Positions 1-40,243 of a stretch of 40,243 bases of DNA are shown one piece after another. Positions within the stretch are counted from its first letter, which is position 1; each line of letters starts with the position of its first letter. The stretch is from the IMG/VR virus record IMGVR_UViG_3300028968_000002, one strand, 5' to 3'. The notes beneath the pieces were generated by a model that made no database searches, was not told the DNA's origin, and was given only the letters and a program-made list of their open reading frames with translations. The translations under genes were made by a program, and so were the position numbers. The stretch is from a virus.

Positions 1-99
1 GGAGACGGTTCGGGAAGAGACGAAGCAAATAAGGCGGATAGTCTTCAGACTGTATTAAGAACCTTAAAATCAGATGGATGTATGTTTTTTAATGCAATA
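1..99. repeat. Terminal overlap: bases 1..99 are identical to 40145..40243, so the contig is circularly closed or terminally redundant
   Basis: Direct base-by-base comparison of both ends gives an exact 99-nt match. The reading frame of the ORF at the window end continues into position 1. Confidence 0.97.
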
Positions 100-3000
100 T
101 ATATTAACTTAGAAGAAGGGGTAAGAGTTAGAGAGAAAATCGTATTGCAAGATTTCTACGGGACATTACTTCAAATAAATTTAGGTAAAGATGCTTTATT
201 GCAAGTAAAAGAAGGCAGTGTTATAGAGGATACTAGATGTAGAATTTATATAACTTCTTCAGAATACAACGGAACGGACACACTAGATTCTTACAATGAA
301 TCCGGTAAATTAAATACATTAGGATGTGTGGAAATTAAAGATGTAGCAGGTTTTAAACTTAGCCATAACAGCCATGCTAGATTTGATGGACTTCGTATAA
401 GAGGAAATTCGCTTGATTCTGTAGGTTTTAGATGTGCAGATAGTAATCTATTAGAGGTTACAAACTGCGATGTAAGTAATATGGATAAAATAGCTGACGG
501 ATATAATTCTTCAAAAATACTTCTAGCTAATTGTCAAGGCAATGTAAACAAACTTGCTACGCTTGCGAGTGGAAGTATTTTTAGTTCATCACCTCAAGTG
601 CCCTCTTATGCAGAGAATGAGCCATGTGAAGTATATGGTTCATCTGCTGTTATTAACTCCTTTGAAACGTTTGTTAAGAAAGATTCTAAATTCGAAGATA
701 CTTTTAGCAACGATGATAATACAAATACTTTAGCAATATTTGGAGTTAGCCAACAATATACAAACTACGAGGGCGAAGGAATAAACGCAGAAACAAGTAT
801 GCTTAATCTTGTAGGACAGGGACGCTTTAAAGAAGATTATAAATATATGCACGGGTACGCAGTATTTATAAGTGATACAGATGATTCCATGGAGGAATAT
901 CTAAAGACTTTGGGCAGTTATAATATGTACTTAAGAATGACGAGAGCTGATAATAATACTACTGCTCCAATACCAAGAGTTAGATTCCAACTTGGAAATG
1001 GAGAATATACAGCATATTATAAGTTAGATCCATTAACAAGCCCACTAACTGGAGATGGAAGTGGAGCGCAAATTATAGATTATAATGCTACAGAAGATAG
1101 AAAATTACCGAAGGACCTTACAGACAAGATTGCAACTTACGGAGTTTACAGTGTGGAATTTCTATCAGACGAATTTGAGGACTATTTAGTAGTAGATGAT
1201 ATAAAATTGGTAGTTGTAGGAACGGCTAAAGGAGAAGAAAGCGGAGACATTGGAACAGATGTAAAAGCAATAGGTAGAATATTAGCTAATGCTCTTAATG
1301 TGCGTAAAACTCCGGGGATAGACGGAGAATATGCTGGATTACTTGTAAATGGGGATACAGTAGAAATTGTAGGAGTGGATGCAGATACAGGTTGGTATAA
1401 AATAAAATTTGAAGATGGCTATGCTTATATAACAAATAAATCCGAATATGTAGAAATAATCTCAGGAGACCCTAACGGAACTACAACAATACAAAAAGTA
1501 GAAGTCTTGGCCGATAACTTAAACGTAAGAAGTGGACCAGGAACAGAAAATAGTTCTATAGGCATAGTGCAAAAAGGATTTGTTGCCGACATATTAGAAA
1601 CAGATAGTACTACAGGTTGGTACAAAATAAGCTACAACGGTGAATATGGTTGGGTGACTAATAACACAACTTATGTAAAAGTAACTACTGGAACGGCTAC
1701 AGTAAGTCCAGAACTTTACGATGGAGCAAAAGTTGCAGGATTTGCAGAATCTTACTATAATGCAAGAAATAATTATACCTCAGCTAAGAGTTGGGATAAT
1801 GGATTTACTTACGGAGATTCTACACCATGTAATACTAGTGCAAGTGGTACTATGGGAGCTACAAATAGTATATGGGAGAAATCTAGCCAGGGAAACTATT
1901 GGAAAATGATAGATGAATCCACTTTAATATTGTTATGTTTAATGGGGTATGACTATGATGCATCTCCATATGCAAGCCTTGTACAGTACAATAATTACAG
2001 AACAAATATTTTAGCAAAGAATAGTTCTTATACAGGAGCAATAGTCCCATTAATTGGTTCTAGTCTAGCTCGAACTTGTGCAGAAATAGCACAATACTTC
2101 TACAATAAGGGACAAACCTTTGAAGTAAAGAGCGATTATAGTAACTTACAAAAAGGGGACTTATTATTTTATGCTAGAAAAACAAGTAGTGGAGCATATG
2201 TCTATCCAACTAGATGGAAATATATTAGCACAGGAGCAATTTGCATAGGTCAAGATAGTAGTGGAAATGCACAAATAATTACAGCTATGAGTAATCCTGG
2301 AGAGAAACACACAGATGGCTGGTATACGGGACTAAAAAAAGACCTTGTGAAGAATCAACAACCTTCTACTATTGTATTAGCGGTTCGTCCAAGCACTAAG
2401 GTTACAAGTAGTGGTTCTTCTAGTGGAGGAATTACTGTATCGAATATGCGTCAAACAATATGTGATACAGCAATGAAAATAGTCAATATGGGTACTAATC
2501 ATACAGCATGGTATTCCCAATATTGGAGAACAACTTCTCTTAGTAGTATGGTAACCATTAAGGGAAAAGTTGAGACAGTAGGAGGAACAACATATTATCA
2601 ACCTAGCTGGGTCCAAACAGGGGTGACATACGGATTTGATTGTAGCTCTTTGGTTGGCTGTTGCTATGAAAAGGCTGGAATGAGCTATATGAAAGGATTA
2701 ACTTGTTCTATGGGAACATTGCAATCTACTGCAAAAGCACATGGGGCAACATTCTGGAGATATGCTGATTCAGGCTTTACAAGGGCAAAAGCTGGAGATA
2801 TAATCATGTTTGCAAATACTGGATATACCGTAACCACATCTAATATGGCAACAGTAAGAACTCATCATACGGCAATATATATGGGTAACGGTTATATTGC
2901 AGAGGCAAGCGGTTATAAGAAAGGAATAATTTATAGCAAATATAACTTAAATAAACAAGCATTTTTTATAAGACTTCCAGAGTTAGACAGGGCAGATAGT

Positions 3001-3603
3001 GCTAGTTCTAGCGGAGGAACAGTAGTAAAAGAGGAATACAAAAATTGTTTCAATGAAAAAGGAACAATTGATGGACACAACTATGTGTATAGATTACATG
3101 ATGCAAGATGCACTTGTTACAGTGCAAGTGAAAGTAACAGTTCGGGAAGAAGTGGCTTAGGTACGCATATGGGAAAAACAGTTGCGTCGCAAAATATTCC
3201 ATATGGTACAAAAATATATATTCCAGCACTAAAAGGTCAAACATGGACTAATGCTAATGGAACAAAAGTAACTCTAGATGGTGTATTTACGGTCACAGAT
3301 AGTGGTATAGCTTGTTTTGACTTCGATATTGTAGCAGGAAGTACAAGCAGTGCTTGTTATAGCAACTATTCAAATCCTTCAAGGATGGAAGTATATGTAT
3401 TAGAATGGGGAACAAGTACAATACAAAATTATAGCTTTTCTGATACGTACAGAATTGCCTATAACAATGGTGTACTATCTAGATACAAATCAGCATTTAA
3501 AAATTATATTAGCAACGGTGGCGTACTTATAAATTTGCTTAAATTCTATAATGATGATGCAAATATAAGAAGTAGTACATATTGGAGCATATTAAATAGC
3601 TAG
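1..3603 (+). CDS. Tail-associated lysin (Tal), C-terminal part. It continues the ORF that starts at 38246 across the circular junction, giving about 1833 aa in total
   Basis: Frame 1 is open from base 1 and is in the same frame as 38246 after subtracting 40144. There are two SH3b-like repeats (LNVRKTPG...GWYKI about 1290-1440; LNVRSGPG...GWYKI about 1510-1640). An NlpC/P60-like Cys-His module is present (GFDCSSLVGCCYEKAG...HHTAIYMGNGYIAEAS, about 2630-2910), preceded by a second P60-like segment (about 1960-2300). A C-terminal 3D/RlpA-like segment follows (CTCYSASE...GKTVASQNIPYGTKIYIP...FTVTDSG, about 3110-3310). Confidence 0.85.
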   Translation, partial: GDGSGRDEANKADSLQTVLRTLKSDGCMFFNAIYINLEEGVRVREKIVLQDFYGTLLQINLGKDALLQVKEGSVIEDTRCRIYITSSEYNGTDTLDSYNESGKLNTLGCVEIKDVAGFKLSHNSHARFDGLRIRGNSLDSVGFRCADSNLLEVTNCDVSNMDKIADGYNSSKILLANCQGNVNKLATLASGSIFSSSPQVPSYAENEPCEVYGSSAVINSFETFVKKDSKFEDTFSNDDNTNTLAIFGVSQQYTNYEGEGINAETSMLNLVGQGRFKEDYKYMHGYAVFISDTDDSMEEYLKTLGSYNMYLRMTRADNNTTAPIPRVRFQLGNGEYTAYYKLDPLTSPLTGDGSGAQIIDYNATEDRKLPKDLTDKIATYGVYSVEFLSDEFEDYLVVDDIKLVVVGTAKGEESGDIGTDVKAIGRILANALNVRKTPGIDGEYAGLLVNGDTVEIVGVDADTGWYKIKFEDGYAYITNKSEYVEIISGDPNGTTTIQKVEVLADNLNVRSGPGTENSSIGIVQKGFVADILETDSTTGWYKISYNGEYGWVTNNTTYVKVTTGTATVSPELYDGAKVAGFAESYYNARNNYTSAKSWDNGFTYGDSTPCNTSASGTMGATNSIWEKSSQGNYWKMIDESTLILLCLMGYDYDASPYASLVQYNNYRTNILAKNSSYTGAIVPLIGSSLARTCAEIAQYFYNKGQTFEVKSDYSNLQKGDLLFYARKTSSGAYVYPTRWKYISTGAICIGQDSSGNAQIITAMSNPGEKHTDGWYTGLKKDLVKNQQPSTIVLAVRPSTKVTSSGSSSGGITVSNMRQTICDTAMKIVNMGTNHTAWYSQYWRTTSLSSMVTIKGKVETVGGTTYYQPSWVQTGVTYGFDCSSLVGCCYEKAGMSYMKGLTCSMGTLQSTAKAHGATFWRYADSGFTRAKAGDIIMFANTGYTVTTSNMATVRTHHTAIYMGNGYIAEASGYKKGIIYSKYNLNKQAFFIRLPELDRADSASSSGGTVVKEEYKNCFNEKGTIDGHNYVYRLHDARCTCYSASESNSSGRSGLGTHMGKTVASQNIPYGTKIYIPALKGQTWTNANGTKVTLDGVFTVTDSGIACFDFDIVAGSTSSACYSNYSNPSRMEVYVLEWGTSTIQNYSFSDTYRIAYNNGVLSRYKSAFKNYISNGGVLINLLKFYNDDANIRSSTYWSILNS

Positions 3604-3614
3604 GAGGTGGCAAC

Positions 3615-5600
3615 ATGAGAGATTATGATATAGAGAGTGATCTAAAGCAAGAGAAATTTCAATCTCTTAAATTAGTGCAGGGAGATAGAGGAAATAAAAT
3701 TAAAATAAATGTGTATGAAGATGGGCAACCAGTTAATTTGGCTGGTTGCTCTGTTACTGCAAAATATAAAAGAGCAGATGGAGAAATAATAAACGATGGT
3801 GTAATAGAAAATATACATGATAATTCCTTCGATGCAGTTATGGATAGTTCTATAACAAAGGTAGCAGGAACGCTAAAAATGTTATTCACTATAGAAAAAG
3901 ATGCTGTTAAAGTTAGTGCATTTTTGCTGTTAGCAGATGTAAGAGAAGGTATAGGAGAAAGTAGTTCTTCAGGTGGAAGCGCAGGAGGTGGAGAAGTGAC
4001 AGTAGATCTTAGTGATTATTATAAAAAAATTGAAACTTACTCAAGAAAAGAGATTGATGCACAATTTAAAGATATTGTGAATAAAACTATTACAACTGAA
4101 GAACGAAGTAAATTATCTAGTTTAGAAAACTACGATGATACTAGTGTTAAAAATGATATACAAACACAGAAAGCCAGAATAGATACTTTCACTTCACTTA
4201 AAGAAGGAAGTACTACTGGAGATGCAGAATTAATTGACGCTAGAATAGGGGTTAACGGAACAAATTATTCTAATTTAGGGGATTCAATAAGAAGTCAATT
4301 GGACTATATAGTTGATATATCGCCAAATTTATATGAATTTAATGATAATGGATTATATACCGAGAGTGGTATAACAAATGCAAATACAAAATATTGGCAC
4401 TCCAAACCTATAGCTTGTAAAATAGGAGATGTATTTCGCATATCTAAAAGAGTAAGCTGGCAAAGTTCTTGGATAGGAGTACTAGATAAAAACGGAAATA
4501 AGATAGACACCCTATCAGATGGAAATCTTACACCTTGGTTACAAAAAGGCGATGATAGTGTAAATTATGATACTATAACTATTTCAGAATTTAATTATAA
4601 TGGAGCTATTGTAAACAAAGATAATATAGGATTTTTAATTATATCATTTTCAGCATACGACAGTGTAACCGATTCAAGTAAAAATATAATTGTTAAAAAT
4701 TGCGATTTCCCTGAACAGTTTATAGAAAAAGGTTCAACTTTACAGTCATGTGTGAAATTTAATGAGATTCATAAAAAATCAATACAAAATATAAGTGATG
4801 AGCAGATTAGAGAATTTAATAAGCCAATCAAAAAGGCTTTAGTACTTTTAAATTTTGATGCGTTTAATTTTGATGATAAAAGATTTGAAATATTGCAAGA
4901 ATATGGATTTAAAGCTACTGTTACTTTTGGGACACAAACAACTCCAGTTTATAATGAAGAAAAGGCTAATAAATATAAAAAAGTAATGAGTAATGGTTGG
5001 GATATAGGTATTTATTCAGCTACAAACTGGGTTAAAGATAAGTACGGAAATGAAGCCTTCACATCTACAAGTGATGAGGTAGAAAAGGCATGGGAAGATT
5101 ATGTTAAACTTGCCCTAGAAGATGCAGAATTAAATGGAGTTTATTATCCTCAAACATGGTTTTGTAGACAAAATGCTTACTGTGATGCACTTGGGAAATC
5201 TTTAAGAAAATATGGGTTTAAAATGTGTAGAGGTGAACATTTCGTTGATTATAAAAAAACACCTACGTATTTTAACAATGATTATAGTTTTGTAACTCGA
5301 ACTAAGGGTTTATATCCTTCAACTGTTGAAGGATGTTTATGGGAAATAGACCAATGTGTAAATGATACCAAAGGGATTTCTATATTTTCGCATGGAATTT
5401 ATGCTACAGATGAAGAAGCAGAAAGCAATTTCGGTTGTACTGAAACTAATTTAAGGACAGTTTTAGATAGAATTAAAAAATATGTAGACGAAGGAAAATT
5501 AGAAGTGTTAACGTATAATGAATTATATAATAGATATAATTTAAATGATTCAATCAATATTAATTATAATAGAATATTGAAAATGCTAACCAATAATTAG
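3615..5600 (+). CDS. Tail fibre / receptor-binding protein with a BppU-like N-terminal domain, a Gly/Ser linker and a NodB (polysaccharide deacetylase)-like C-terminal domain
   Basis: A GGAGG RBS precedes the start. The N-terminus (KLVQGDRGNKIKINVYEDGQPVNLAG) resembles the baseplate upper protein Ig-like domain. The C-terminus (LNFDAF...RQNAY...IFSHGIY...VLTYNELY) resembles the NodB fold but lacks the canonical D-D and H-x-x-x-H metal ligands. Confidence 0.7.
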   Translation: MRDYDIESDLKQEKFQSLKLVQGDRGNKIKINVYEDGQPVNLAGCSVTAKYKRADGEIINDGVIENIHDNSFDAVMDSSITKVAGTLKMLFTIEKDAVKVSAFLLLADVREGIGESSSSGGSAGGGEVTVDLSDYYKKIETYSRKEIDAQFKDIVNKTITTEERSKLSSLENYDDTSVKNDIQTQKARIDTFTSLKEGSTTGDAELIDARIGVNGTNYSNLGDSIRSQLDYIVDISPNLYEFNDNGLYTESGITNANTKYWHSKPIACKIGDVFRISKRVSWQSSWIGVLDKNGNKIDTLSDGNLTPWLQKGDDSVNYDTITISEFNYNGAIVNKDNIGFLIISFSAYDSVTDSSKNIIVKNCDFPEQFIEKGSTLQSCVKFNEIHKKSIQNISDEQIREFNKPIKKALVLLNFDAFNFDDKRFEILQEYGFKATVTFGTQTTPVYNEEKANKYKKVMSNGWDIGIYSATNWVKDKYGNEAFTSTSDEVEKAWEDYVKLALEDAELNGVYYPQTWFCRQNAYCDALGKSLRKYGFKMCRGEHFVDYKKTPTYFNNDYSFVTRTKGLYPSTVEGCLWEIDQCVNDTKGISIFSHGIYATDEEAESNFGCTETNLRTVLDRIKKYVDEGKLEVLTYNELYNRYNLNDSININYNRILKMLTNN

Positions 5601-5712
5601 TTCACAATTTAAAAATATTGCGAACTAATTTGCCAAGTAAAATAAAATACGATATTAATAGAACCATTTTTCCCATGTCGGCAAAATGGTTATCCGAAAA
5701 ATAGGGACCTAT

Positions 5713-5744
5713 AAAGAGTAGAATTGATTTTCTACTCTTTTTTT
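5713..5744 (+). terminator. Rho-independent terminator after the tail fibre gene
   Basis: An 11-bp stem (aaagagtagaa / ttctactcttt) with a 6-nt loop is followed by a T-run. Confidence 0.8.
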
Positions 5745-5760
5745 AGAAAGAAGTGATTTT

Positions 5761-6042
5761 ATGAAAGATATTGAAATAAGAGTCAAGACACCAGATGGAG
5801 TAGTTATAAGCGAAAAAGAGAAAAACGCTTACATAGAACATATCAAAAAAAATAATCCTAAAAGGAAAATTGAATGGGTTGAAATAGTTATAGATAATGA
5901 AGGCTTTGCCAATCTTACTTATTCGTTAGCTCCAGTTGATTTTGAGAGAATCAGAAGAATAACAGGATATCTAGTAGGAACAACAGCTAAATGGAATAAT
6001 GGGAAAAAAGCTGAACTAAGAGACAGAGTAAAACATCTATAA
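5761..6042 (+). CDS. Stand-alone NrdD-like glycyl-radical domain protein (93 aa)
   Basis: The C-terminus RRITGYLVGTTAKWNNGKKAELRDRVKHL parallels the NrdD C-terminal loop as I recall it from E. coli (RRVCGYLG...FNAGKQEEVKRRVKH). The protein has no cysteines, so it has no Zn ribbon. It lies between a terminator and the lysis genes, a typical moron position. Confidence 0.7.
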   Translation: MKDIEIRVKTPDGVVISEKEKNAYIEHIKKNNPKRKIEWVEIVIDNEGFANLTYSLAPVDFERIRRITGYLVGTTAKWNNGKKAELRDRVKHL

Positions 6043-6100
6043 AAATTAAAAATAAAAATCGGTGTCAAATTTTGACACCAAAAAAGAAAGGGGTTAAAAA

Positions 6101-6337
6101 ATGCAAACTGAAATAATAGTTGCGATTATAGCATTCGCTGGAACATTAATAGGTTCTTACTTTGCAAATAGTAAAACTACTGCTGTTATGCAAGAACAAA
6201 TAAAAAGTATCAAGGAAGATATAAATATTCTTAGTGACAGAGTAGATAAACACAATAATTTAGTTGAGCGCATGGCAAAAGCTGAAGAAGGCTTAAAAGA
6301 TGTACATTATAGAATAAACGAAATAGGAGGAAATTAA
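6101..6337 (+). CDS. Small membrane-anchored coiled-coil protein of the lysis cassette (holin-associated, XhlA-like role possible)
   Basis: There is an AAGGGG RBS, an N-terminal TM segment (IIVAIIAFAGTLIGSYF) and a charged coiled-coil tail. Its TAAATG junction with the holin gene suggests translational coupling. Confidence 0.6.
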   Translation: MQTEIIVAIIAFAGTLIGSYFANSKTTAVMQEQIKSIKEDINILSDRVDKHNNLVERMAKAEEGLKDVHYRINEIGGN

Positions 6338-6595
6338 ATGTTAGATTTAAATGTATTAGGTAATTATATAGTGTTGTTAGTTGTAGGTATTTGCTTATGC
6401 GTTGGGTACGTAATAAAAGTTAGTTTTACAAAAATAGATAATAAATATATACCATGCATAATGGCAATACTTGGATGTGTTTTAAATGTTTGGATAGCAG
6501 GAGGTATAAATCCAGAAATAATTTTAGGTGGTATGTTATCAGGACTTGCATCAACTGGATTACATCAAGCTTTTAAGAATTTGATAGAAAAATAG
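6338..6595 (+). CDS. Holin (small protein with 2-3 TM segments)
   Basis: The 85-aa protein has hydrophobic segments and a GLASTGLHQAFKNL tail, and sits immediately upstream of the endolysin. Confidence 0.75.
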   Translation: MLDLNVLGNYIVLLVVGICLCVGYVIKVSFTKIDNKYIPCIMAILGCVLNVWIAGGINPEIILGGMLSGLASTGLHQAFKNLIEK

Positions 6596-6694
6596 GTATA
6601 AACATAAGGTAAATATTTTGAAAAGTGCTTAGAAAGCTAACTGCAAGGTCGTTTTTTTAAGCACTTTATTATTTTAGAAAGGATTTGATATTTT

Positions 6695-7501
6695 ATGAAT
6701 AAGCCAGTGATAGTAGAAAAATGGCAAAAAAGAAATAAATATGGCAGACCTGGAACAAAATTAAATTATACGAAAGTAGCTATACATTATACAGGAAAGG
6801 CGGATGTAAAAGGCATAAACACAGTATCTTATTTCAACAATGTTGTGGCGAATGGATACAAAGTTAATGGAAAATATATCTATGCATCCGCTCACTTCGT
6901 TATTGATCTAGATGGAACTATATACCAACTAATTCCGTTAAATGAAATCTGTTATGCGACTAATAGTGCTAATAGCTACGCTGTAGGAGTAGAAGTAGCT
7001 ACAACAGGAAGCGACAACCATTATACAGACGCTACATATAAAAGTATGGTCCACTTATGTGCATGGTTATGTTACAATAAAGGACTTAATCCGAAAACAG
7101 ATATTATTAGACATACAGATGTTGTAGGGAGAGCCTACAAATTATGCCCTATATATATGGTAAATAACCCAGATAAATATGAACAATTCAGATTAGACTG
7201 TTATAACGTAAAAGCAGGTAAAGTCAGCTTAGATAAAGTTGTAAATTGTACTAATGGAAAAGGTATTACAGTAATTCCTGATGCGACACAAAATAAAACA
7301 CAACTTGTAAGAATATTACAAGACGTAAATATACGTAGTGCAGCTGATTTTACTGATGCAAGTGTAATCGGCGTAGTTAAAAAAGGAGGAGTATATACTG
7401 TTGTTGAAAAAATAGAAAGAACAGGAACAGATATGTATAAATTGAAATCAGGTGTTTATATAACCGCATCTAAAAAGTATGTACAATTAATAGAAAAATA
7501 G
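6695..7501 (+). CDS. Endolysin: N-acetylmuramoyl-L-alanine amidase (Amidase_2/PGRP type) with a C-terminal SH3-like wall-binding domain
   Basis: Motifs IHYTG, HFVIDLDGTIYQLIP, YAVGVEV and RHTDV...LCP are present. The C-terminal VNIRSAADF...GVYTVVEKI...MYKLKSGVYI is SH3-like. Confidence 0.9.
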   Translation: MNKPVIVEKWQKRNKYGRPGTKLNYTKVAIHYTGKADVKGINTVSYFNNVVANGYKVNGKYIYASAHFVIDLDGTIYQLIPLNEICYATNSANSYAVGVEVATTGSDNHYTDATYKSMVHLCAWLCYNKGLNPKTDIIRHTDVVGRAYKLCPIYMVNNPDKYEQFRLDCYNVKAGKVSLDKVVNCTNGKGITVIPDATQNKTQLVRILQDVNIRSAADFTDASVIGVVKKGGVYTVVEKIERTGTDMYKLKSGVYITASKKYVQLIEK

Positions 7502-38245: not shown

Positions 38246-40243
38246 TTGATACCAAGAATATATAATAATAGTTTTACAACATATGATAGTAATGGATTAG
38301 GTTTATTGGTAGATGCTATATCCTGCCAAGTCGAAGAGGAGTCTAATGGAGATTTCGAGTTAACACTTGTATATCCTTCCGATGGTTCTTTTTTTTATGC
38401 ATTAAAACAAGATAATCTTATAAAAGCCGATACATCTGATACTTTAAAAGGGCAACTTTTTAGAATAGATACTATAAGCAAACCTTTAAATGGGCAAGTA
38501 ACAGTATATGCAAAACATATAAGTTTTGACTTAGCTAAGAACTCTTTAAATGAAGATGTAAACGAAAAAAACATAAATTGTGAAAATGCTGGTAAGCATA
38601 TGCTTCAAAAGTCTGATGCTGACAGTAGATTTTCTGTTGAAAGTAATATAGAAATGCTAGGTAACTATAGTATGGATAGAAAAACAGATTGTTTATCTGC
38701 TATAGCTGGGACAAAAGGTTCTCTTATAGATACGTTTGGTAATGGACCTAAGCTTCTAAGAGATAACTTTACAATATCCGTACTTAATAGAAGAGGTAAG
38801 GATGATAACACTCTTATAGCTTATAAGAAGAACATTACAGGATTTACATTAGAAGAGGATTACTCAGAAATAATTAATGTTATAAAGCCTTATGCTACTT
38901 ATACAGAAGATGAAGTTGAAAAGACTCTATATATTGATGAAATAGGAGTAAAATCACCTAGATATATAGAAGGGGATATAGTAAAAAGTCGATGGATTGA
39001 TTTTTCAGATAAATTCGATGAAGATGAAACACCAACAAAAGAAAAATTAAAGAATCTAGCTGAAAAATATTTCAACGATAATAGCTGCGACCTTCCTAAA
39101 ATGACTTATAAAATAGAATTTCAACCGCTTAGCCAAACGGAAGAATATAAGGAAGATGGATTGGCTGAACTAGAATATATAGGCATGGATGACAGTGTCT
39201 ATATAGCTAACAGCAAATACGGAATAAGGGACCAAGCAAGAGTAATTAAAACAACTTATAACGTATTAGCAGATAAATATATATCTATAGAGTTAGGTGA
39301 TCCAAAAACAACGTTAGGAAGTATTATAAATAAATCTAATAACAATACAGTAACAAAAGATGAAGTAAAAGATCTTATAAATAAAAATAATAAAAAAAAT
39401 TATCCTAATACATTACCAATAGTGCCTGTTGTAACTATAGATAGAGCTGGATTTAAAACTATTTCTCTTAGTTGGCAATATGAAAATAAACCTTATTATT
39501 TTTATGAGGTATACGCAAGCCAAGAACAAGGATTTACACCTAATACTTTCGACCTAATCTTTAAAGGGCAAGCGAGTGCATTTCTACATGAAGTTGAATG
39601 TGCACAAACTTGGTACTACAAAGTAAGAGCTATAAATACTTATGGAAATGCTACAGACTTTTCAAAAGAAGTTAGTGCAACAACTACAAAAATAAGTGAT
39701 GCTGCGGAATATTTCCAAGAGGCTGCAATAGAAAGTGCACTTATAGGTTCTTTAAATGCAGATGTAATTAATGCAGGTAAACTTAAAGGAACTTATATAG
39801 ATGCTAGAAATATAAATGTAATTGATGGAAATGGAGATATTACATTCTCTGTATCAAGCGATGGTAAAGTGCGTATAAATGAAGGGGCAATACAGCTAGA
39901 TGAGGAAGGCATTCAGATTTTACATAAGAGCCAAAATGAATCCCTTGTAGGTAGGACAGTAATGGACGAGGAAGGTTTTAGAATATTAGACAAAGACGGG
40001 AATGAACTGGCGGATATAGGTGCTAGTGGAGCGCATTTTGCTAATATGACTGTAGATGGGAGATTTAACCATTATCCGAGCGCACAAATAATAGATAGAC
40101 AACAAGGATGGTCAAAAGATTATTATGTTGGGAAAATTGCTACAGGAGACGGTTCGGGAAGAGACGAAGCAAATAAGGCGGATAGTCTTCAGACTGTATT
40201 AAGAACCTTAAAATCAGATGGATGTATGTTTTTTAATGCAATA
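38246..40243 (+). CDS. Tail-associated lysin (Tal), N-terminal part. It runs off the window end and continues at 1..3603
   Basis: The TTG start follows GGTGGTG. The N-terminus IPRIYNNSFTTYDSNGLGLLVDAISCQVEEESNGDFELTLVYP...GQLFRI is typical of the prophage tail endopeptidase domain. An FN3-like segment (ISLSWQYENKPYYFYEVYAS...WYYKVRAINTYGN) lies at about 39460-39690. My manual translation found no in-frame stop up to 40243. Confidence 0.85.
   Translation, partial: MIPRIYNNSFTTYDSNGLGLLVDAISCQVEEESNGDFELTLVYPSDGSFFYALKQDNLIKADTSDTLKGQLFRIDTISKPLNGQVTVYAKHISFDLAKNSLNEDVNEKNINCENAGKHMLQKSDADSRFSVESNIEMLGNYSMDRKTDCLSAIAGTKGSLIDTFGNGPKLLRDNFTISVLNRRGKDDNTLIAYKKNITGFTLEEDYSEIINVIKPYATYTEDEVEKTLYIDEIGVKSPRYIEGDIVKSRWIDFSDKFDEDETPTKEKLKNLAEKYFNDNSCDLPKMTYKIEFQPLSQTEEYKEDGLAELEYIGMDDSVYIANSKYGIRDQARVIKTTYNVLADKYISIELGDPKTTLGSIINKSNNNTVTKDEVKDLINKNNKKNYPNTLPIVPVVTIDRAGFKTISLSWQYENKPYYFYEVYASQEQGFTPNTFDLIFKGQASAFLHEVECAQTWYYKVRAINTYGNATDFSKEVSATTTKISDAAEYFQEAAIESALIGSLNADVINAGKLKGTYIDARNINVIDGNGDITFSVSSDGKVRINEGAIQLDEEGIQILHKSQNESLVGRTVMDEEGFRILDKDGNELADIGASGAHFANMTVDGRFNHYPSAQIIDRQQGWSKDYYVGKIATGDGSGRDEANKADSLQTVLRTLKSDGCMFFNAI
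40145..40243. repeat. Second copy of the 99-nt terminal overlap
   Basis: It is identical to 1..99. Confidence 0.97.

Follow-up and report, generated by a model that had tools for sequence, protein, structure and literature searches.

A stand-alone NrdD-type glycyl-radical protein encoded beside the lysis genes of a temperate phage, and its family of candidate trans-acting partners of anaerobic ribonucleotide reductase

The IMG/VR virus record IMGVR_UViG_3300028968_000002, a stretch of 40,243 nucleotides analysed here at its full length and referred to as the window, carries a small gene whose 93-residue product ends in the glycyl-radical segment of NrdD, the anaerobic (class III) ribonucleotide reductase (RNR). 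Relatives of this gene are widespread in gut anaerobes and their viruses. In Selenomonadales and some Ruminococcus, comparison of gene content argues that NrdD, which is often the sole RNR, has been truncated before its own radical glycine and depends on the family for the only one. For the phage gene itself we consider it probable that the product is a trans-acting radical module, which would be activated by NrdG and would re-arm the NrdD of the host.

Results

The small protein carries the radical-bearing end of NrdD

The open reading frame (ORF) starts with ATG, and its product contains no cysteine. Residues 61-92 match positions 533-562 of the 562-position Pfam NRDD model (PF13597) with E = 8.9e-9 and 35 bits, above the gathering cut-off of 26.2. 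The last ~33 positions of four NCBIfam NrdD equivalogs also match (best E = 4.5e-11), at scores which, over these last positions only, lie far under the model cut-offs, and PHROG NrdD families match the same C-terminal part. In the PDB, residues 707-739 of Prevotella copri NrdD (chain 8P23_A) align with the window protein at E = 4.6e-8 ('RITGYLVGTTDRWNSGKLAELHDRVTHI'). Allowing for a 4-residue tag offset in the numbering of that chain, Gly69 of the window protein (codon GGA at 5965-5967) corresponds to the radical Gly711 and Tyr70 to the conserved Tyr712, whilst a predicted helix at residues 80-88 corresponds to helix 723-730. The protein thus presents the NrdD glycyl-radical motif (R-x-x-G-Y, here RRITGYL) followed by helix and tail. 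It has neither the ten-stranded alpha/beta barrel with its finger-loop cysteine, for which 93 residues are too few, nor the four-cysteine Zn site that precedes the radical loop. At E <= 10, PF01228, the Gly_radical family of the pyruvate formate-lyase (PFL) type, is absent from its Pfam matches, and PFL, GrcA and YfiD chains are absent from its PDB sequence matches. Judged by these comparisons, the resemblance to the NrdD C-terminus is far beyond chance. One further Pfam match, to aRib (18.9 bits against a cut-off of 27), was taken as chance or compositional.

A preliminary description of the window, made from its letters without database searches, had read the end of this ORF as an NrdD glycyl-radical C-terminus and had pointed out that barrel, Zn-ribbon and cysteines are all missing; the profile and structure matches above bear out both statements. 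It had also regarded the threonine standing in place of cysteine before the glycine as a peculiarity, which it is not: RITGY is the normal motif of this clade, present in the NrdDs of P. copri and of the likely host lineage.

The N-terminal part of the protein is not derived from NrdD. An AlphaFold2 (AF2) model predicts strands at residues 5-9, 37-44 and 50-56 and a helix at 18-31, a block modelled with a predicted local distance difference test (pLDDT) score of 74-85. The Gly loop has low pLDDT in this single-chain model, as expected of a loop that would be buried in a partner. A fold search of the model against the PDB returned no structural neighbour at E < 0.02 (best E = 0.027), and its top matches, a splicing endonuclease and HPF, had template modelling (TM) scores of 0.25-0.4.

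NrdD enzymes that end before the radical glycine occur together with the small protein

We clustered the neighbours of 81 chromosomal copies of the small gene. nrdD lies directly upstream in five loci and nrdG directly downstream in five; four loci (L029, L053, L077 and L079) have the order nrdD-small gene-nrdG, with nrdR next in L029. The adjacent NrdDs of L053, L077, L079 and L094 are 739-771 residues long, stop ~20 residues past the Zn-ribbon (for example ...CPKCGRSEAEHRHRMIIPRICCGN) and contain no glycyl-radical motif. L029 has a complete NrdD with a radical domain nearly the same as that of the neighbouring small protein. Linkage is not a general feature of such pairs: the one NrdD of Ruminococcus sp. 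210702-SL.1.03 ends ...HERMKRISCCK, and the small gene is on a separate contig.

The association extends across an order. We sampled 121 genomes of Selenomonadales, the order containing Anaerovibrio, calling an NrdD truncated where its Pfam match ended at position 531-541 of 562, and made the counts by hand from the result tables. The small protein is present in ~103 of the 107 genomes with only truncated NrdD, the four exceptions being draft assemblies, and in none of the 8 genomes with only full-length NrdD. A search for a class I/II RNR large subunit, positive in 12 of 14 control genomes, found none in four of the five truncated-NrdD-only genomes searched (three essentially closed). The small protein must act in trans there, because the sole radical glycine motif sits on it. 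Read from this distribution of genes, a trans-acting radical domain for NrdD must exist in nature, with trans-complementation working for this family, and across a whole bacterial order a truncated NrdD and the small protein together appear to make up the only RNR.

The natural truncation point coincides with the site at which activated NrdD is cut by oxygen. The truncated tails retain a degenerate form of the strand leading to the glycine (ERMKRIS, FERIPRI), and the small protein overlaps this retained strand. Several naturally truncated NrdDs finish in -CC- (RICCGN, RMCCSNA, RISCCK).

Other origins of the split arrangement were considered and rejected. The truncated NrdDs have only ~20 residues past the Zn-ribbon, which speaks against a split intein or trans-splicing; the two genes are often megabases apart, which speaks against a frameshift; and the truncated state is order-wide, with the truncated NrdD as the sole RNR in several genomes, which speaks against pseudogenes. 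An intein origin of the N-terminal domain was likewise rejected, as the domain has no intein-like match or motif and is conserved in genomes with full-length NrdD.

A different arrangement was seen in the cultured Eggerthella phage EL753P1 (OP172808; L272:1-3084), whose intein-bearing NrdD ends after the Zn-ribbon. Its radical loop lies in a small unannotated ORF ~360 nt downstream (…GVGFERIRRI*), with a frame shift exactly before TTGYLTGSADRWNDAKKAELRDRVKHGK. An independent split, a programmed frameshift or a sequencing error could each account for this.

The small protein tracks the NrdD of its own genome

Most carriers also possess a complete enzyme. Among 60 genomes with the small gene that we examined for NrdD type, ~44 have a full-length NrdD of ~780 residues belonging to the same clade, ~13 have only a truncated NrdD and 3 have both forms. 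In the 42 genomes with both proteins available for comparison, the 34-residue radical segment of the small protein shares a mean of 29.3 identical residues with the NrdD of its own genome and 26.7 with those of other genomes, and mean identity to the radical domain of its own NrdD is 86%. None of 10,000 permutations reached the observed value for own-genome matching. The two proteins even have lineage-specific tails after ...RVKH in common (NRYSDASELG in one and NRYSDPSELAG in the other; DVSNPGTLEQL and DVSSQGVLETL). At the level of sequence, this matching indicates recurrent gene conversion or co-evolution, since the shared ancestry of an old duplicate would not by itself produce it, and either process would be expected of a part that has to fit the same barrel and the same activase. 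Many small proteins and same-genome NrdDs also bear Cys-rich tails after ...RVKH (SCGC, SCSCC, CSCSLEEIA, CDCALEEIA); the window protein ends in KHL, without such a tail.

Regulation of the chromosomal copies points in the same direction. A site resembling the NrdR box, scored as at least 12 of 16 matches to ACACWATATATWGTGT within 250 nt upstream, precedes 49 of the 76 unlinked chromosomal copies as compared to 5% of background windows; at 14 or more matches the proportions are 21% and 0.5%. The same scan found strong boxes upstream of nrdD controls. The unlinked copies therefore appear to be part of the RNR regulon, and chromosomal copies are likely under NrdR control, as far as these predicted sites indicate.

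Other recurrent neighbours among the 81 chromosomal copies are a rubrerythrin gene downstream (8 loci), a divergent Crp/Fnr regulator (8) and S-adenosylmethionine (SAM) synthetase (5). In a Ruminococcus flavefaciens group (L030, L034, L035, L039, L043, L066, L075 and L082), rubrerythrin follows the small gene; it bears an N-terminal rubredoxin-like domain, and 7 of these 8 loci have the divergent Crp/Fnr-type regulator upstream. This is an oxidative-stress neighbourhood, and it fits a role after oxygen exposure.

A large, conserved and uncurated family

Searching for proteins of similar length recovered full-length homologues in 2,799 clusters at 90% identity, and an exhaustive HMMER search gave 186 representatives at 50% identity (E <= 1e-10), nearly all of 85-140 residues; a 4,133-residue repeat protein in the HMMER output was taken as a chance or compositional match. 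No Pfam, NCBIfam or PHROG family spans the whole window protein, and public databases name the ORFs 'anaerobic ribonucleoside-triphosphate reductase' or 'hypothetical', treating them as fragments. The family is uncurated and was previously unrecognised.

In an alignment of 42 diverse members headed by the window protein (A1), the N-domain residues E20, Y24, P33 and Y54 are invariant and the F61-L71 block (FERIRRITGYL) never varies, followed by conserved N79, K82, E85, D88, R89 and H92. We define the family here by a length of 85-100 residues, the beta-alpha-beta-beta N-domain and these invariant residues; the window protein has all three. At least 80 species genomes contain full-length relatives, among them members of Oscillospiraceae, Ruminococcus, Lachnospiraceae, Selenomonadaceae, Erysipelotrichaceae, Anaerovoracaceae, Acholeplasmatales and Eggerthellaceae, and so do at least 80 viral contigs. 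A tree places the window protein in a well-supported clade of 13 rows, all from phages, within a phage clade of 29 rows, and overall it needs at least nine switches between phage and chromosome. The ratio of nonsynonymous to synonymous substitution rates (dN/dS) is 0.06-0.27 within the phage clade and 0.10 for the least saturated pair; by this measure the family is under purifying selection.

Selenomonadales also encode a paralogue of 77-115 residues without the glycine, in which the same N-domain is followed by PFERIRRVS/IS... and then by an unrelated short tail (Table 1). It adjoins a regulator of the Rrf2 family in L151 and L152 and is also present in genomes with full-length NrdD. This relative of the radical subunit may have a regulatory or capping role.

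The likely host has a complete NrdD

Close relatives carry the source names Intestinibacter sp., Clostridium perfringens metagenome-assembled genome and Caudoviricetes, and genome G398 encodes a protein 99% identical to one that flanks a related prophage in its host. The host is likely a Peptostreptococcaceae lineage. G398 encodes two complete NrdDs, each with NrdG downstream. The first, NrdD1, is of the same clade as the phage protein and ends ...FERIRRITGYLVGTVDRFNDAKKAEVRDRVKH; its 14-residue core is identical in the phage protein. The second is of the E. coli/T4 type. The likely host lineage (G398 and relatives) thus has both an NrdD of the same clade, marked by FERIRRITGYLVGT, and NrdG. 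Across the host family, 85 of 112 genomes match the window protein only at the C-terminal end of a ~780-residue reading frame, matches which we read as the ends of full-length NrdDs, whilst the small gene itself occurs in only 3 of the 112, with three copies in one. Such rarity is the pattern of a prophage accessory gene. Because the likely host NrdD is full length and has its own NrdG, the phage copy would be an additional radical domain, which is the situation of a spare part. A search of the window found no NrdD core and no NrdG, and since the phage encodes neither, its protein must use those of the host.

The gene lies between the tail-fibre gene and the lysis cassette

With positions 1-99 and 40145-40243 identical (a 99-nt overlap), the window is a phage genome closed into a complete circle; its G+C content is 31%. 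We take the phage to be temperate because it encodes a large serine recombinase and an anti-repressor. In metagenome loci the small gene always stands between a tail-fibre gene with a variable C-terminus and a cassette of membrane protein, holin and endolysin; amongst the 80 viral-contig loci listed, these three follow in 51, 48 and 39, respectively. The place before the holin and endolysin genes given in the preliminary description is therefore correct and recurs well beyond the window. An identical window protein is found on 78 contigs.

The strong terminator that had been proposed upstream of the gene is also real, a hairpin at 5713-5744 with a U-tract (-14.3 kcal/mol, z = -4.4). A hairpin and T-run directly before the ribosome-binding site (RBS) are found in five phage lineages, those of the window and of L198, L201, L202 and L223, with position and shape kept and stem sequences differing, which suggests that read-through into the small gene and the lysis genes is regulated. 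Given a hairpin before the RBS, transcription either reads through, for example by late antitermination, or starts in the short leader. No Rfam family matches between 5000 and 7000 at E <= 1, and the leader is accordingly no known riboswitch. A second hairpin separates the small gene from the lysis cassette; its T-run is on the minus strand alone, and plus-strand transcripts therefore probably read on.

The C-terminal domains of the tail-fibre protein differ among otherwise syntenic prophages. A direct repeat of ~20 bp, at 4060-4079 and 5603-5622, brackets this variable part: the copy CACAATTTAAAGATATTGTG lies inside the tail-fibre ORF, where it codes for AQFKDIV, and the copy CACAATTTAAAAATATTGCG begins 3 nt past the stop codon. 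The pattern CRCAAT-N8-ATTGYG is present in 61 phage loci, usually in pairs separated by 1.5-3 kb, and absent from the chromosomal loci. From its sequence and placement the repeat looks like a boundary for exchange of receptor-binding modules. We had considered the palindrome at 5603-5622 as an operator of the small gene and rejected this, as it recurs in the tail-fibre ORF and brackets the variable part in the 61 phage loci.

Table 1. Features of the small gene and its surroundings (positions in the window unless a locus is named)
Feature	Position	Strand	Basis or remark
Gene for the autonomous NrdD-type glycyl-radical protein, 93 aa	5761..6042	+	ORF list, NrdD C-terminal matches, homologues, dN/dS
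N-terminal domain, residues 1-56, beta-alpha-beta-beta, family-specific, not NrdD-derived	5761..5928	+	AF2 model, invariant residues
Glycyl-radical loop F61-N79 (FERIRRITGYLVGTTAKWN)	5941..5997	+	Invariance, alignment to the Gly711 loop of P. copri NrdD
C-terminal helix and tail, residues 80-93 (NGKKAELRDRVKHL)	5998..6039	+	Modelled helix 80-88; equivalent to helix 723-730 and tail of P. copri NrdD
Terminator-like hairpin and U-tract, ending 11 nt before the purine-rich RBS region (5745-5756)	5713..5750	+	Folding
Hairpin between small gene and lysis cassette, T-run only on minus strand	6061..6080	.	Folding
Downstream partners: 78-aa membrane protein, holin, amidase endolysin	6101..7501	+	Profile matches
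78-aa protein with N-terminal membrane helix	6101-6337	+	phrog_1863; between small gene and holin
Holin	6338-6595	+	PF16079
Amidase endolysin	6695-7501	+	PF01510 + DUF5776
Receptor-binding/tail-fibre gene (BppU_N), exchangeable C-terminal part	3615..5600	+	Context only
Tail protein of ~1,830 aa (Prophage_tail, SH3, NlpC/P60)	38246-40243 + 1-3603		Runs across the circular junction
Gly-less paralogue (Selenomonadales genomes)	L150:2982-3248		
Gly-less paralogue (Selenomonadales genomes)	L151:3043-3390	-	
Gly-less paralogue (Selenomonadales genomes)	L152:3166-3399		

Discussion

We lean towards the view that class III RNR also exists as a two-component enzyme, made of an NrdD core that ends at the glycine and a subunit of ~90 residues charged by NrdG, and that temperate phages of gut Peptostreptococcaceae carry a copy of this subunit which may re-arm the host NrdD after oxygen damage or during replication. 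The preliminary description had proposed a stand-alone NrdD radical domain acting on host NrdD in the manner of GrcA, and the comparative evidence favours that proposal. In the mechanism we envisage, the small N-terminal domain would fold and serve for docking, leaving the Gly loop flexible and followed by the helix. The host activase NrdG, a radical SAM enzyme, would abstract a hydrogen from Gly69, recognising the FERIRRITGYLVGT motif as it does on host NrdD. The charged loop would then enter the barrel of a host NrdD whose own radical domain has been cut by oxygen at the glycine or displaced, placing Gly69 beside the finger-loop cysteine, and ribonucleotide reduction would resume, supplying deoxyribonucleoside triphosphates (dNTPs) for host or phage DNA synthesis. 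The phage protein would in this way either repair oxygen damage or raise the active fraction of NrdD. In P. copri NrdD the radical domain shows high mobility and is able to exit the barrel (PMC11226230). For the phage copy we infer NrdG activation, insertion into the barrel, the repair or boosting role and the timing of expression.

Several points weigh against this proposal for the phage copy. None of the 11 phage loci has an NrdR box, nor does the window leader. Identity of the phage radical loop to G398 NrdD1 is ~78% over 32 residues, with 7 differences, below that of most chromosomal pairs, and the host lineage is itself assigned through relatives of the phage. The terminator-like hairpin immediately upstream leaves both timing and level of transcription ambiguous, and the benefit of a second radical domain where NrdD is full length is only an analogy.

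The escape of the phage copies from NrdR control and the 7 of 32 differing loop positions would equally suit a decoy or regulator, a protein that binds host NrdG or fills the NrdD barrel without catalysis and thereby lowers or times host dNTP synthesis, which could serve, for instance, to keep out competing phages or set the pace of replication. Conservation and purifying selection do not discriminate here, as a decoy for NrdG also needs an intact Gly motif, and the Gly-less paralogue in Selenomonadales (N-domain plus PFERIRRVS...) indicates that non-catalytic relatives occur. We nevertheless think a decoy unlikely: in split lineages the role of the family is to supply the only radical glycine, the phage clade retains every invariant residue, including Gly69, Tyr70 and the residues of the enzyme-contacting helix, and the window protein has no match among the PADLOC defence-system models. 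An N-terminal domain without known relatives, which in the Gly-less paralogue stands beside Rrf2 regulators and may have a function of its own, leaves some room for a partner other than NrdD, be it another glycyl-radical enzyme or a target of the N-domain. This we hold to be quite improbable, given a radical loop of NrdD type only, with no PF01228 or PFL match, together with the nrdD/nrdG operon linkage, the NrdR boxes, the matching to the resident NrdD and the complementarity with truncated NrdD.

Public annotation, by naming such ORFs 'anaerobic ribonucleoside-triphosphate reductase' as if they were fragments, implies an inert remnant, a captured 3' end of nrdD without function. A remnant would hardly keep a conserved domain foreign to NrdD, a dN/dS of about 0.1 and the same position in dozens of diverged prophages, and the same protein would hardly stay identical across its 78 contigs; conservation effectively refutes this reading, to which we give almost no credence. 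A trans-acting radical module that re-arms host NrdD thus remains our preferred account of the phage gene.

In class I RNR the radical resides on a separate subunit. If our interpretation is correct, the family provides the class III counterpart of that arrangement, and PFL would no longer be the only glycyl-radical enzyme with a spare-part protein. New names would be needed for some 2,800 protein clusters that now appear as 'anaerobic ribonucleoside-triphosphate reductase' or 'hypothetical', and a truncated NrdD ought not to be taken for a pseudogene. The findings also suggest that gut phages may help strict anaerobes to continue dNTP synthesis after oxygen exposure. A radical domain that is separable from its enzyme is potentially useful in enzymology, and the spare-part question for NrdD is now directly testable, with natural 'experiments' available in the split lineages.

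The principle of the autonomous glycyl-radical cofactor is already known. GrcA is a small stand-alone spare glycyl-radical part of PFL, which overlaps the strand kept by oxygen-cleaved PFL (PMC13450708), and phage T4 encodes a GrcA homologue serving PFL, Y06I (Wagner et al. 2001, as cited in PMC13450708). According to the same review, of June 2026, spare parts are known only for formate lyases, those for other glycyl-radical enzymes being 'yet to be determined'. Our full-text literature search, from whose scope most subscription-only papers fell out, found no description of an NrdD spare part or of an NrdD split at the radical domain. The novelty lies in the family itself, in the enzyme it partners, in its N-terminal domain and in the obligate part it plays in split RNRs, and we regard the protein as the first strong spare-part candidate for any glycyl-radical enzyme besides PFL.

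Amongst known proteins, the radical domain of P. copri NrdD (8P23, residues 676-739) has a homologous Gly loop, helix and tail and the common RITGYLVGT motif; the window protein differs in lacking the Zn-site half, the barrel and the ATP-cone, and in being a separate polypeptide with its own N-domain. RNRs with a divided catalytic chain or an interrupted gene are also on record, namely the split class II enzyme NrdJa/NrdJb of Pseudomonas aeruginosa (PMC4520616) and phage nrdD genes split by introns or inteins (PMC3653736). Those systems, however, cut the catalytic chain or are healed by splicing, whereas the present family is cut at the radical glycine, its small piece has gained a new domain, and its genes are often unlinked and free of intein or intron features.

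Y06I shares with the window protein that it is a phage-encoded autonomous glycyl-radical protein for a host glycyl-radical enzyme; it is of PFL type, whereas the window protein is of NrdD type and is encoded beside the lysis cassette of a temperate siphophage without RNR genes. The closest functional parallel is with GrcA/YfiD of E. coli, likewise a small separate radical domain that copies that of a large enzyme in the same cell and overlaps the retained strand. The window protein and its relatives are stand-alone proteins of this sort, closely copying the radical domain of NrdD (86% identity on average, ~78% for the phage), and by analogy they would be charged by the activase of the enzyme and would replace a lost part. 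No sequence relation to GrcA/YfiD is detectable, and the partner is NrdD rather than PFL; on these grounds we consider the window protein analogous, and not homologous, to GrcA and to T4 Y06I. Where GrcA has a disordered N-terminal tail, the window protein has a folded beta-alpha-beta-beta domain, and in some lineages the present family is no longer a spare but an obligate subunit.

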